Positions 39,254 to 40,847 of a stretch of 64,000 bases of DNA are shown piece by piece. Origin of the DNA: Escherichia coli (GTDB lineage Bacteria; Pseudomonadota; Gammaproteobacteria; Enterobacterales; Enterobacteriaceae). The translations under genes and the position numbers were made by a program. The stretch lies in NCBI RefSeq assembly GCF_003334335.1, contig NZ_QOWQ01000014.1, one strand, 5' to 3'. Below the pieces are notes generated by a model that did not search any database, was not told where the DNA came from, and saw only the letters and a list, made by a program, of their open reading frames with translations. The number at the start of each line of letters is the position of its first letter. Positions within the stretch are counted from its first letter, which is position 1.

Positions 39254-40030
39254 ATGTCCGAAACAAAAAACGAACTTGAAGACCTGCTGGAAAAAGCAGC
39301 AACTGAACCGGCGCACCGCCCGGCCTTTTTCCGTACTCTACTGGAATCCACCGTCTGGGTGCCTGGTACGGCGGCGCAGGGCGAGGCTGTGGTTGAAGAT
39401 AGCGCGCTTGATTTACAGCACTGGGAAAAAGAAGACGGCACCAGCGTCATTCCTTTTTTCACCTCGTTAGAAGCACTTCAACAGGCGGTTGAAGACGAAC
39501 AGGCATTTGTCGTAATGCCCGTTCGCACGCTGTTTGAGATGACACTTGGCGAAACGCTCTTCCTTAATGCCAAAATGCCAACCGGTAAAGAATTTATGCC
39601 GCGTGAAATCAGTTTGTTGATTGGTGAAGAGGGAAATCCGCTGAGCAGCCAGGAAATCCTGGAAGGCGGTGAATCGCTGATATTATCGGAAGTCGCAGAG
39701 CCGCCAGCACAAATGATTGATTCACTCACCACCTTATTTAAAACCATTAAGCCGGTGAAGCGTGCTTTTATTTGTTCAATTAAAGAGAACGAAGAGGCAC
39801 AGCCTAATTTACTTATTGGCATTGAAGCCGATGGTGATATCGAAGAAATTATTCAGGCGACGGGAAGTGTAGCGACCGATACATTACCTGGCGATGAACC
39901 AATCGATATTTGTCAGGTGAAAAAAGGGGAAAAAGGAATTAGCCACTTTATTACCGAACATATTGCGCCATTCTATGAACGTCGCTGGGGTGGTTTTTTG
40001 CGTGACTTTAAACAGAATCGGATAATCTAA
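39254..40030 (+). CDS. sseB: SseB (acidic protein of unknown function, DUF-type)
   Basis: ORF track 39245..40030; start ATG 39254 (MSETKNELEDLL...). Confidence 0.85.
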   Translation: MSETKNELEDLLEKAATEPAHRPAFFRTLLESTVWVPGTAAQGEAVVEDSALDLQHWEKEDGTSVIPFFTSLEALQQAVEDEQAFVVMPVRTLFEMTLGETLFLNAKMPTGKEFMPREISLLIGEEGNPLSSQEILEGGESLILSEVAEPPAQMIDSLTTLFKTIKPVKRAFICSIKENEEAQPNLLIGIEADGDIEEIIQATGSVATDTLPGDEPIDICQVKKGEKGISHFITEHIAPFYERRWGGFLRDFKQNRII

Positions 40031-40054
40031 AATATGCCGCCCAAAGGGCGGCAT
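40027..40054 (-). terminator. intrinsic terminator oriented for a minus-strand transcript ending next to the sseB stop
   Basis: 9-bp GC hairpin atgccgccc/gggcggcat (40034-40054) followed on the minus strand by AUUUUA (plus coordinates 40028-40033); no U-tract on the plus strand. Confidence 0.55.
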
Positions 40055-40060
40055 TCGGGC

Positions 40061-40186
40061 TTACTTGCTGCTCTGAAGGTTGTTAACCACCAGTAAATTG
40101 TCGCCGGAGAGACTCCGGTTATTATTTACCTCGGTTAACAGCGCACCAGAAACAATAAGTACGATACAAAAGCACCGTATCTTCAT
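40061..40186 (-). CDS. candidate small protein (41 aa) with hydrophobic N-terminal segment
   Basis: Minus-strand ATG at 40184-40186, TAA at 40061-40063; MKIRCFCIVLIVSGALLTEVNNNRSLSGDNLLVVNNLQSSK; stop lies 6 nt before the terminator hairpin; weak SD; below the 60-aa cutoff of the ORF track. Confidence 0.35.
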   Translation of the reverse strand: MKIRCFCIVLIVSGALLTEVNNNRSLSGDNLLVVNNLQSSK

Positions 40187-40210
40187 TGTGCGGTCCATGC
40201 GAAGACCGCA

Positions 40211-40285
40211 TCACGACAGCACCACTGGCGATATTGCCGCGATAGCAAGCGCTGTGAAACACCTGCATTTACGGCCACGGAACAT
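40211..40285 (-). CDS. candidate small protein (24 aa) with basic N-terminus and hydrophobic C-terminus
   Basis: Minus-strand ATG at 40283-40285 preceded by AGGAAAGG Shine-Dalgarno, TGA at 40211-40213; MFRGRKCRCFTALAIAAISPVVLS. Confidence 0.3.
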   Translation of the reverse strand: MFRGRKCRCFTALAIAAISPVVLS

Positions 40286-40317
40286 CCTTTCCTAAAGCCA
40301 GCGCCCGTTTGCGAGAC

Positions 40318-40513
40318 GGCGGAAAGGGCCGCAGTGGATAATACACTAACAGAACAATAATAACTCTCTTTTGCTTGACAAAAAGAGAGTTACTGGCGAG
40401 TATTGTCTCCGCTGAGACGCGCTTGCATTACTACGGTAATACAACCTGCTGGAAAGGCCGCGAACCGGACCAGCAACAAAAAACCGCCTGATTTTGGCGG
40501 TTTTTTGTTTTTT
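40318..40513. repeat. tandem module copy 1 (palindrome with promoter hexamers + bidirectional terminator)
   Basis: ggcggaaagggcc...taactctcttttgcttgacaaaaagagagtta (perfect 12-bp stem 40361-40372 / 40381-40392) ...ctgctggaaaggccgcgaacc...aaaaaaccgcctgattttggcggtttttt; about 80-85 percent identical to copy 2. Confidence 0.85.
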
Positions 40514-40668
40514 AAAGGAAAGTGAATTTACATGTTTAAGTAATATCTTTTACCGGTTAGAATTTTTAATTTTGAGCAGGATTTGTTTATATTTGTCTGA
40601 ATTCGGACTAATAAGCCAGGTTATTTTATTACCGAACACGGCGGAAAGGGCCGGTGTCGATAATACGC
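40478..40668 (-). ncRNA. predicted second (sibling) minus-strand transcript driven by module copy 2
   Basis: Same TTGTCA-16-TATTGT hexamers conserved in copy 2 (plus 40698-40703 and 40676-40681); would terminate at the copy-1 terminator (40478-40506); no ORF longer than a few codons; AT-rich body. Confidence 0.3.
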
Positions 40669-40831
40669 TAAATAAACAATAATTACTCTCTTTTGCTTGA
40701 CAAAAAGAGAGTTACTGGTGAGTATTGTTTTGCTGTGAAGCACCTGCGTTGCTCATGTAACACAAGTCAACCTGCTGGAAAGGCCGCGAACCAGACTAGC
40801 AATAAAAAACCGCCAAATTCGGCGGTTTTTT
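40640..40831. repeat. tandem module copy 2; its terminator also serves sseA
   Basis: ggcggaaagggccggtgtcgataatacgctaaataaacaataattactctcttttgcttgacaaaaagagagtta...aaaaaaccgccaaattcggcggtttttt; terminator stem conserved but loop differs from copy 1; period between copies 322 bp. Confidence 0.85.
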
Positions 40832-40847
40832 ATTGCCTGTAAAATAC

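Follow-up and report, generated by a model that had tools for sequence, protein, structure and literature searches.

Two short reading frames in the ryfA RNA of Escherichia coli: the toxin gene timP and a second frame that is most likely a by-product of RNA structure

The window, a stretch of 64,000 nt from an Escherichia coli genome (RefSeq assembly GCF_003334335.1, contig NZ_QOWQ01000014.1), carries on its minus strand a full-length copy of the ryfA RNA, which spans both of the short hydrophobic reading frames, here called ORF A and ORF B, that the original prediction had placed inside a ryfA-like transcript (Table 1). The Salmonella in-vitro template starts with GGCCCTTTCCGCCGTC, and by homology with the published Salmonella transcript, +1 is probably located at 40330 (GGCCC...). 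The timP mRNA has a 5′ UTR of 146 nt, followed by ORF B at nt 147-272. The single-sequence fold of the whole RNA has a minimum free energy z-score of -5.39, and a ryfA match was found in all of the complete E. coli genomes (5,426/5,426). The neighboring gene sseB is encoded on the plus strand, convergent with ryfA, and ends at 40030.

Table 1 Genes and RNA elements of the ryfA region in window coordinates.
Feature	Position	Strand	Basis or detail
ryfA RNA (timP mRNA)	40029..40332	minus	Rfam RF00126, 314.9 bits, full length 1-296
timP CDS (ORF B), 41 aa and stop	40061..40186	minus	RefSeq CDS timP WP_001380605.1, identical coordinates
Intrinsic terminator of the timP mRNA	40034..40054	minus	9-pair stem (7 G-C), 3-nt loop, tail ATTTTAG
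ORF A, 24 codons in the timP 5′ UTR	40211..40285	minus	ATG 40285-40283, TGA 40213-40211
SL1 (RNA nt 6-47)	40286..40327	minus	14-sequence consensus fold
Pseudoknot site 1, CUGGC	40301-40297	minus	within SL1
Site 2, GGCCGU (RNA nt 57-62, ORF A codons 4-5)	40271..40276	minus	from Salmonella C57-G59, +2 offset
TimR target in SL2 (RNA nt 64-83, ORF A codons 6-12)	40250..40269	minus	antisense complementarity
SL3 (RNA nt 90-112, within ORF A codons 15-22)	40221..40243	minus	consensus fold
Pseudoknot site 3, GCCAG	40229-40225	minus	in SL3
SL4, GC hairpin	40189..40210	minus	stem UGCGGUCU/UGGACCGCA; single-sequence fold and 14-sequence consensus
Proximal TimR-like (RyfB-like) antisense gene, putative	40412..40509, ends approximate	plus	seed CGCUGAGACGCGCUUGCAUUA, CGCGT type
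Distal TimR-like antisense gene, putative	40734..40836, ends approximate	plus	seed UGCUGUGAAGCACCUGCGUU
Rfam 'IS128' RNA	40464..40672	minus	RF00125, 262.1 bits

ORF B extends from an ATG at 40186-40184 to a TAA at 40063-40061 and encodes the peptide MKIRCFCIVLIVSGALLTEVNNNRSLSGDNLLVVNNLQSSK; the frame and its 41 residues had been predicted correctly, but the start had been given as 40184, which is the G of the ATG and lies 2 nt short of the first base. The NCBIfam profile NF040796 (toxic_TimP) scored 86.8 bits against this peptide (cutoff 45), aligning residues 1-40 over a profile of 40 positions. By sequence, ORF B is TimP, a member of a family of small inner-membrane toxins, and we infer that the E. 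coli allele, too, would be translated and toxic. The frame is encoded in the 3′ half of the RF00126 RNA and ends just before its terminator: the spacer between the stop codon and the hairpin is GCCCGA, the 6 nt that had been predicted, and the same spacing was found in 16 of 16 homologs and likewise in four added Salmonella sequences, with the hairpin kept in all homologs. In the Salmonella timP mRNA, mutations in the terminator stem lead to loss of function.

As a measure for both frames, the original prediction had named conservation at the amino-acid level in related genomes, with tolerated stops or frameshifts speaking against a gene. Our comparison set consisted of 20 homologous sequences; it is shallow, because among the 80 loci of an sseB-anchored genome scan only 10 had ryfA beside sseB, and the Serratia, Hafnia and Rahnella homologs named in papers lie outside it. 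The search of protein databases with TimP returned Escherichia and Shigella clusters only, without distant relatives because it was limited to shared words, and Salmonella was added by exact-sequence lookup. Measured in this way, ORF B behaves as a gene. Its ATG and full-length frame were present in 20/20 homologs (38-41 aa), every indel was a multiple of three, and no in-frame stop occurred in any of the 20, whereas each of the other frames contained at least one stop in all 20. The pooled pN/pS, a figure that combines non-independent pairs from a shallow alignment, was 0.32 for codons 1-17 versus 0.66 and 1.01 in the other frames. A plasmid-borne homolog of about 70% identity also encodes a TimP-like ORF of 40 aa.

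The TimP N-terminus is basic and hydrophobic, with MK.R followed by CFCIVLIVSGALL and a maximum Kyte-Doolittle value of 2.9 at residue 7 (11-aa window), which bears out the predicted hydrophobic segment. These first 17 codons align unambiguously across genera and are better conserved than the C-termini, which diverge. The N-terminal 17-20 residues would form a hydrophobic segment resembling a Sec signal; SignalP and Phobius signal predictions have been published for the Salmonella and CFT073 versions of TimP. A 45-aa TimP starting at the upstream in-frame ATG 40198, the start used in the UPEC paper, was rejected as the likely form because this codon is AAG in all Salmonella alleles, because of its position in the SL4 loop, and because the family profile begins at the second Met. 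Scattered truncated TimP variants exist, and rare variants carry in-frame deletions.

Upstream of timP, the RNA contains the helices of a structural switch, which we followed in a consensus of 14 sequences; the stem-loops SL1, SL2, SL3 and SL4 are all part of the consensus fold. The GC hairpin that had been noticed before ORF B, and suspected of occluding ribosome access, is SL4 of the published structure: it sequesters the timP Shine-Dalgarno (SD) sequence (GGA 40196-40194), its pairs 123-130/137-144 form in 99% of the cells of the comparison, and probing of the Salmonella RNA showed that SL4 traps the timP SD. The pairs between sites 1 and 3 (32-36/104-108) and those between sites 2 and 4 (57-62/124-129) form in 100% of cells across the 14 sequences, and a pairing of sites 1 and 2 is possible in 91%. 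In Salmonella, the SL1-SL3 pseudoknot is essential for timP translation, as is an intact lower SL1 (M7/M7′). The lower part of SL1 pairs CCUUUCC (nt 6-12) with GGAAAGG (nt 41-47, 40292-40286) in 13-14 of the 14 sequences, and two of its pairs are changed on both sides in a compensatory manner. Taken over lower SL1, SL2 and the 1-3 and 2-4 pairings, 98.4% of cells form, versus 38-57% when the partners are slid against each other. All helices of the switch are formable in K-12, including the SD-trapping SL4, the pseudoknot and the alternative pairings of site 2. Across the 14 sequences the switch helices are conserved, with most pairs invariant, which is conservation rather than covariation, and their function is known only from Salmonella.

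The opposite strand upstream of ryfA contains, in 14 of 14 canonical loci, a complement of 16-23 nt to ryfA nt 62-86 that tracks each allele. It was detected by an ungapped complementarity scan, which replaced a sliding-window RNAduplex analysis whose long, loop-ridden duplexes had hidden the core. The variable region of the target occurs in four versions (TGTTT, CGCGT, CCCCC and CACCC), the pairing position is identical in all 14 loci and in the plasmid homolog, and TimR protects the SL2 loop in Salmonella. A divergent upstream sRNA with a terminator and with a 5′ part complementary to the toxin 5′ UTR is therefore found here as in other timPR loci, and two such genes are predicted in the window. 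The distal one belongs to a duplicated module (repeats D1 and D2) and provides the best complement of the K-12 target: its seed, at 40731-40750, pairs at 20 of 20 positions with nt 64-83, including 3 G-U pairs, and a terminator palindrome is located at 40799-40836. The proximal one has a -10-like TATTGT at 40401-40406 and, at 40475-40509, an inverted repeat with a T run behind it; its complement to ryfA (~40410-40430) is imperfect in K-12, and its seed pairs without mismatch with ryfA of the JJ1886 type. The duplex energies with K-12 ryfA are -33.1 kcal/mol, with internal mismatches, for the proximal and -36.1 kcal/mol for the distal copy, and by these values both copies could pair with the K-12 RNA. 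The IS128 RNA annotated by Rfam falls inside the tandem repeat found in the promoter region, and its 5′ end (CCGGCCCUUUCCGCCGU) matches ryfA nt 2-17; it is a truncated ryfA-like transcript of the distal module that retains only the ryfA-like 5′ end.

ORF A has a different standing. A frame of 24 codons encoding MFRGRKCRCFTALAIAAISPVVLS is indeed present, with AGGAAAGG immediately upstream (40293-40286), although its start had been placed at 40283, the G of the ATG, 2 nt short of 40285. The AUG frame of 24 codons was found in 8 of the 20 homologs; the frame is cut to 5 codons in another 4, and the AUG is absent from the remaining 8. The TAG at codon 6 defines an allele class that comprises 2,983 of the 5,426 complete E. 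coli genomes (~55%), and it was retained in all TAG-allele samples inspected at 100%, 98% and 96% identity. The AUG is missing in Citrobacter and is AUA in the Salmonella Typhimurium-type allele, and in the plasmid homolog the frame is disrupted by indels that are not multiples of three. Because stops and the loss of the start are tolerated, ORF A fails as a coding sequence by the measure that the original prediction itself had set out. The substitution pattern points in the same direction: variable columns at codon positions 1, 2 and 3 number 13, 13 and 6, so that the third position varies least, and the pN/pS, pooled in the same way as for ORF B, reaches 2.73 in frame versus 0.56 and 0.63 out of frame. 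Frames of this size are also easily found in such an RNA: the ryfA sense strand has five that begin with ATG and run for 24 codons or more. When ryfA was shuffled with its dinucleotides preserved, 61% of all shuffles contained an ATG ORF of this minimum length, and 10% of all shuffles contained one preceded by an SD-like 4-mer. The AUG at ryfA nt 122 also opens a frame, of 27-34 codons, in 18 of the 20 homologs.

One might read ORF A as a second small membrane-active peptide, which would make the transcript one with two toxins. In K-12 the N-terminus of the peptide is basic, 16 consecutive residues are neither charged nor strongly polar, and an SD-like sequence precedes the AUG. However, most lineages have a premature stop or lack the start, the apolar stretch of 13-16 residues is broken by S-P and is short for a membrane span, the search of the NCBIfam profiles with ORF A gave no match, and the substitutions show the reverse of a coding pattern. 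An intact frame with a similar peptide does recur in lineages as distant as K-12, S. diarizonae and Superficieibacter, a likeness that we attribute to nucleotide conservation in SL2 and SL3, which is not strictly separable there from conservation of the peptide; the conserved half of the peptide is encoded by just these nucleotides, which are constrained as RNA. We regard a two-toxin transcript as extremely unlikely.

From its supposed SD to its stop codon, ORF A coincides throughout with mapped RNA elements. The SD that had been called strong is formed by the 3′ arm of lower SL1, so that the predicted motif exists but is base-paired in a conserved stem and inaccessible; codons 4-5 correspond to site 2, codons 6-12 to the TimR target and codons 13-24 to the 3′ arm of SL2 together with SL3, and the UGA abuts the foot of SL4. 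ORF A thus has neither a conserved start and frame, nor purifying selection, nor an accessible ribosome-binding site, and it is most likely an untranslated, non-conserved by-product of constraint on the RNA sequence. Its basic N-terminus and hydrophobic C-terminus are an artefact of translating a structured RNA.

The same arrangement could also be read as a case of translational coupling, in which ORF A would be a leader ORF, specific to certain alleles, that activates timP in the way that mok activates hok. Ribosomes would enter at AUG 48 when lower SL1 breathes, read through SL2 and SL3, stop at UGA 120-122 and melt SL4, exposing the timP SD, and TimR bound over codons 6-12 would block them. 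The position of the AUG immediately 3′ of SL1, the stop next to SL4 in K-12 and the TimR site inside the frame are in line with such coupling, as is the recurrence of the 24-codon form in K-12-type, O157/L003-type, S. diarizonae-type and Superficieibacter alleles. The published knock-out of a Salmonella uORF (M1, AUG 53-55 in Salmonella numbering) does not address ORF A because it hit another frame: mapping of the authors' oligos showed that this uORF begins 7 nt further downstream and is read in the +1 frame, which ruled it out as the counterpart of ORF A. On the other side, in 55% of E. coli genomes the frame already ends at codon 6, a long way before SL4; Citrobacter and Typhimurium-type alleles lack the AUG, and the Typhimurium mRNA is still translated via the pseudoknot switch; the SD-like element belongs to the very stem whose pairing translation requires (M7/M7′); and codon-level constraint is absent. 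A leader of the mok type is conserved with its toxin and required for the toxin's translation, and ORF A does not have this profile. We therefore hold coupling through ORF A to be very unlikely, and we give equally little credence to its narrower form, in which ORF A would be an allele-specific bypass of the pseudoknot switch in the 24-codon alleles (the K-12/TGTTT, O157/CACCC and S. diarizonae types). If such a bypass did operate, the common allele with TAG at codon 6 would be a form of the same toxin gene under tighter silencing.

With ORF A set aside as a by-product of the RNA, it may be asked whether TimP itself matters in E. coli. Translation, membrane localization, toxicity, repression by TimR and the switch are documented for the Salmonella allele only (Andresen et al. 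2020, PMC7667032; Eleftheraki & Holmqvist 2024, PMC11228461; Eleftheraki et al. 2026, PMC13000454), and the Salmonella protein, when produced in E. coli, is likewise toxic and found in the inner membrane. For E. coli ryfA, an APEC paper of 2026 stated that it is still undetermined whether the RNA encodes a toxic peptide; our literature search returned no indexed paper linking ribosome profiling to ryfA, and ryfA and TimP are not mentioned in the text of a census of Enterobacteriaceae smORFs. Escherichia ryfA could be an essentially non-coding regulatory RNA with the TimP frame an unexpressed relic, so that neither ORF matters. In line with this, ryfA alleles of UPEC CFT073 in which the TimP ORF was destroyed still complement all ryfA phenotypes, the APEC phenotypes were attributed to the RNA, and Shigella RyfA1 overproduced 100-fold did not slow growth (PMC5333039); detection of the peptide has not been reported, and the truncated TimP variants also fit a relic. 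However, TimP is intact in every allele class examined, PGAP annotates timP under the ryfA match in every chromosomal row among the matches listed, the frame carries a signature of purifying selection, and the rare variants are in-frame deletions. Furthermore, E. coli has kept an SD-sequestering switch together with a co-evolving antisense RNA, which would be sensible only if translation is controlled; the full-length RNA is expected to be non-toxic if translation is held low by the native 5′ UTR and TimR, and a dual-function RNA fits both data sets. A purely non-coding ryfA therefore appears improbable to us, though less so than the readings that assign a function to ORF A.

Taken together, it is very likely that the region represents timP/timR, the enterobacterial type I toxin-antitoxin locus, in its E. 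coli K-12-type version and that ORF A is not a gene; what had been predicted as a type I locus of the TimP/TimR kind would actually be timP/timR itself. By analogy, we infer that the K-12 allele works like that of Salmonella. ryfA would be the timP mRNA, with a 5′ UTR acting as a structural switch in which SL4 hides the timP SD. Translation would need the SL1-SL3 pseudoknot formed by sites 1 and 3 together with pairing of site 2 to the 5′ arm of SL4 (site 4), and the alternative pairing of sites 1 and 2 would lock the inactive state. The divergent antisense RNA TimR (RyfB), about 100 nt long, would pair with the SL2 loop region, destabilize the pseudoknot and block translation, and ORF A would be a frame that chances to stay open over site 2, the TimR target, SL3 and the SL4 foot. 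The timP/timR locus is already known and published, and the observation is real yet ordinary. A reading from sequence alone recovered a gene that annotation had missed for about 20 years and that RefSeq now annotates, adding nothing new, and ORF B alone deserves to be carried forward as a gene. ORF A illustrates how the conserved structure of a 5′ UTR can pass for a small ORF, down to the SD-like motif, the AUG and the hydrophobic tail.

The closest known system is timP/timR of Salmonella Typhimurium, which occupies the same locus between sseA and sseB and belongs to the same Rfam family. Both have the TimP N-terminus MKIRCFC.VL.VSG.L, four stem-loops with identical or compatible sites 1-4, the SD in SL4, a stop 6 nt before the terminator and a divergent ~100-nt antisense RNA directed at the SL2 region. 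They differ in the length of TimP (41 aa in K-12, 38 in Salmonella), with unrelated C-terminal halves, and in the sequences of the TimR seed and its target. Unlike Salmonella Typhimurium, K-12 is without an STM2534-like gene and has a duplicated TimR module with the IS128 remnant, and it has the 24-codon AUG frame where Typhimurium-type alleles have AUA and an 8-codon uORF in the +1 frame. The Typhimurium-type timP mRNA is translated in vitro and in vivo through the pseudoknot switch alone, is toxic and is regulated by TimR.

The RNAs RyfA1/RyfA2 and RyfB1/RyfB2 of Shigella dysenteriae are the same RNAs under older names (Fris et al. 2017, PMC5333039), and RyfA was treated as non-coding in that study. 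Its 'five-nucleotide variable region' lies within the TimR target, reads TGTTT (RNA UGUUU) in K-12 and falls there in ORF A codons 8-10, and the S. dysenteriae RyfB RNAs are divergent ~100-nt transcripts that pair across it. S. dysenteriae has two complete ryfA copies in tandem, whereas K-12 has one complete copy and the truncated IS128, with two RyfB/TimR-like genes.

The geometry of ORF A in K-12 superficially resembles that of hok/mok/sok. In that type I system, the toxin mRNA has a sequestered SD and an upstream frame that overlaps the antisense target. However, hok translation depends on mok, which is conserved, and ORF A lacks such conservation. Whereas hok mRNA has to be processed at its 3′ end, refolding activates the timP mRNA, with no processing step and, in the Salmonella allele, no uORF involved. 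In tisB/istR-1, shoB/ohsC and zorO/orzO, the antitoxin RNA is transcribed divergently from a neighboring promoter and has short complementarity with the toxin 5′ UTR, and the toxin mRNAs become active through processing at the 5′ end and rely on standby or direct sites. The toxins of these three systems have a central transmembrane helix, whereas TimP has a signal-peptide-like N-terminus.

The original prediction had placed two short hydrophobic ORFs, ORF A and ORF B, within a ryfA-like transcript and read them as possible membrane-active peptides of a type I toxin-antitoxin-like locus. The observation stood, whereas the interpretation held for ORF B and failed for ORF A. Both ORFs are present on the minus strand with exactly the predicted peptides, although their starts had been placed at the G of the ATG, 2 nt short, and the hairpins described on either side of ORF B are there. 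Both the literature and RefSeq already cover the entire locus, in which ryfA is the timP mRNA. We numbered ryfA by the oligonucleotides of the Salmonella authors, such that Salmonella position + 2 equals ryfA nt n and the window coordinate equals 40333 - n.

Features of the timP/ryfA locus and of the adjoining tandem modules
Feature	Window coordinates	Strand	Description
ryfA (timP mRNA)	40029-40332	-	Rfam RF00126, full-length match, 314.9 bits
ORF A	ATG 40285-40283 to TGA 40213-40211	-	24 aa
ORF B (TimP)	ATG 40186-40184 to TAA 40063-40061	-	41 aa
Terminator hairpin	40054-40034	-	9 pairs, G+C-rich, short T tail; six bases 3' of ORF B stop
G+C hairpin (stem-loop SL4)	40210-40189	-	upstream of ORF B start
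Module repeat pair	40316-40406 / 40638-40728		91 nt, 90% identity
Module repeat pair	40442-40505 / 40768-40831		64 nt, 84% identity
Rfam "IS128" sRNA	40464-40672	-	RF00125, 262 bits; between the two TimR-like copies

ORF B is TimP. Its peptide matched NCBIfam NF040796 over the whole profile (86.8 bits, cutoff 45), and a timP annotation lies under the ryfA match in every chromosomal match listed for the complete E. coli genomes (n = 5,426). We compared 20 ryfA homologs (the K-12 type, six other E. coli/E. whittamii alleles, five Citrobacter, six Salmonella and one Superficieibacter). The ATG and a frame of 38-41 aa were intact in all 20, all indels within the frame were multiples of three, and the two alternative frames carried stops in every homolog. 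Of the 20, 16 were checked for stop position, and in each the stop preceded the terminator by 6 nt; the other four, all Salmonella, had the same layout. Over the first 17 codons, which align unambiguously, 6, 4 and 9 columns varied at codon positions 1, 2 and 3, and pooled pN/pS was 0.32, while the alternative frames gave 0.66 and 1.01; ORF B evolves as a protein. Among rare E. coli/Shigella TimP variants (P0039, P0043, P0044, P0046 and P0068), three have lost 4-6 residues from the C-terminal half in frame, one S. sonnei form is without the first seven residues and one is frameshifted; the C-terminus thus seems to tolerate change. An in-frame ATG four codons upstream (40196-40198, minus strand; MDRT-MKIR..., 45 aa), used in the UPEC study, is probably not the timP start because it lies in the SL4 loop, reads AAG in all Salmonella alleles and falls outside the NCBIfam profile.

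ORF A had no family match in the NCBIfam profile search. Among the 20 homologs, the AUG and the 24-codon frame were retained in eight, a TAG cut the frame to five codons in four, and the AUG was absent from the other eight. With a 50-nt allele-specific query at an identity of at least 95%, the TAG allele was found in 2,983 of the 5,426 complete E. coli genomes, and the TAG was kept in all sampled members at 100%, 98% and 96% identity to the query; the remaining genomes belong to the K-12-type and O157/L003-type classes. Variable columns at codon positions 1, 2 and 3 numbered 13, 13 and 6, the opposite of a coding pattern, with a pN/pS of 2.73 in frame vs about 0.6 out of frame. Premature stops and start loss are tolerated and the substitution pattern is reversed; ORF A fails the check that the original prediction had set against itself, conservation at the amino-acid level. 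A Shine-Dalgarno-preceded ATG frame of this length arose in about 10% of ryfA dinucleotide shuffles, and ATG frames of 24 codons or more number five in the RNA; the one whose AUG lies at nt 122, within the SL4 arm, is present in 18 of the 20 homologs purely because the RNA is conserved.

ORF A overlies, in all its parts, RNA elements that were mapped by experiment in Salmonella and are conserved here. The supposed strong Shine-Dalgarno, GGAAAGG (nt 41-47), forms the 3' side of the lower stem of stem-loop SL1, opposite CCUUUCC (nt 6-12); the two sides pair in 13-14 of the 14 sequences compared, and two of the base pairs show compensatory change. In Salmonella this stem is needed for timP translation (mutants M7/M7'; PMC11228461). 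Codons 4-5 are switch pairing site 2 (GGCCGU), which in the Salmonella work must pair with the SL4 5' arm to free the timP Shine-Dalgarno. Codons 6-12 are the SL2 target of the divergent antisense RNA TimR (RyfB): in every canonical locus, ryfA nt 62-86 are complemented over 16-23 nt by the opposite strand upstream, and seed and target change together from allele to allele. This target corresponds to what Fris et al. (PMC5333039) called the "variable region", with versions TGTTT, CGCGT, CCCCC and CACCC, and it accounts for the high non-synonymous change and the TAG in ORF A. Codons 13-24 correspond to the SL2 3' arm and SL3 with pseudoknot site 3, whose nearly invariant nucleotides make the hydrophobic C-terminus look conserved, and the UGA stop lies at the SL4 foot.

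A different frame has been examined in Salmonella, where mutation of a putative uORF (AUG 53-55, stop 77-79) left timP translation unaffected (Eleftheraki & Holmqvist, PMC11228461). In the Typhimurium-type allele (L088, L093), which matches the authors' oligonucleotides, this uORF encodes MAVSAGTP; it lies in the +1 frame relative to ORF A, and its start is 7 nt 3' of where ORF A would begin. [quoted passage not shown] The uORF frame corresponds here to 31 codons (40183-40278, minus strand) that begin with GUG at nt 55 in K-12 and AUG in many alleles, and end in a UGA overlapping the timP start (AUGA). Its occurrence is patchy too, as K-12 and the TAG-type alleles lack the AUG, and a UAG in the TimR site cuts the Typhimurium-type version to eight codons.

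The switch steps, TimR repression and TimP membrane action were shown in Salmonella (Andresen et al. 2020, PMC7667032; PMC11228461; Eleftheraki et al. 2026, PMC13000454), and from the conserved anatomy we infer the same mechanism for the K-12 allele. The primary timP mRNA would fold with its Shine-Dalgarno trapped in SL4 and be kept inactive by site 1-2 pairing; after refolding, an SL1-SL3 pseudoknot and site 2-4 pairing would expose it. TimR would bind the SL2 region of the active form, destabilising the pseudoknot and blocking initiation. TimP would enter the inner membrane via an uncleaved signal-like N-terminus and, when overproduced, cause leakage. In UPEC, ryfA phenotypes were independent of the TimP frame, and RyfA1 overproduction was harmless in Shigella (PMC5333039); an RNA with two functions would square these findings with TimP's clear coding constraint.

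Two tandem modules occupy 40316-40836, each consisting of a divergent promoter region and a TimR/RyfB-like gene. The distal RNA, adjoining sseA, is the best complement of the K-12 TGTTT-type target (20 of 20 positions, 3 G-U; -36.1 kcal/mol). The seed of the proximal one is of the CGCGT type and matches the JJ1886/CFT073-type ryfA, the other allele common in E. coli, yet its duplex with K-12 ryfA still reaches -33.1 kcal/mol. After a ryfA-like 5' end (CCGGCCCUUUCCGCCGU), IS128 diverges, and it ends back to back with the proximal TimR terminator; rather than a separate sRNA family, it looks to be what remains of a truncated ryfA in a second timPR module. A perfect palindrome, CTCTCTTTTGCTTGACAAAAAGAGAG, at 40364-40389 and 40686-40711, sits between the divergent ryfA/TimR promoters of both modules; it may serve the two promoters as a common operator, or may just reflect -35 regions that overlap.

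Elsewhere, ryfA lies beside sseB in only 10 of 80 enterobacterial species with conserved sseB, and its presence is patchy even among Citrobacter, as would be expected of a toxin-antitoxin module that is mobile or often lost. A complete, unannotated timPR-like module adjoins the ParA gene of a 48 kb plasmid of E. coli NE88 (unnamed1, NZ_JBRUTH010000002.1; L087:1500-1800). Its ryfA-like RNA is only ~70% identical to ryfA, its 40-aa TimP-like ORF (MKKYYMCIFIVVTGALF...ISSK) scores 22 bits against NF040796, below the cutoff, and a 21-nt TimR-like complement 167-187 nt upstream pairs at ryfA nt 64-84; a search found this homolog in 18 plasmid places. Two loci, from C. amalonaticus and S. enterica subsp. 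arizonae (L017:3290-3561, L019:3290-3561), lack the ~60 nt that normally open ryfA (SL1, site 2) and have sense-strand sequence of the TimR gene (GGTTCGCGGCCTTTCCAGC...) in their place. This looks to be the outcome of a deletion from TimR seed to target, with loss of both promoters; even so, the TimP frame is intact. E. coli isolate 648 (L082:1-1004) carries two complete tandem timP genes with a partial sseB pseudogene between them, an arrangement resembling the RyfA1/RyfA2 pair of Shigella dysenteriae.
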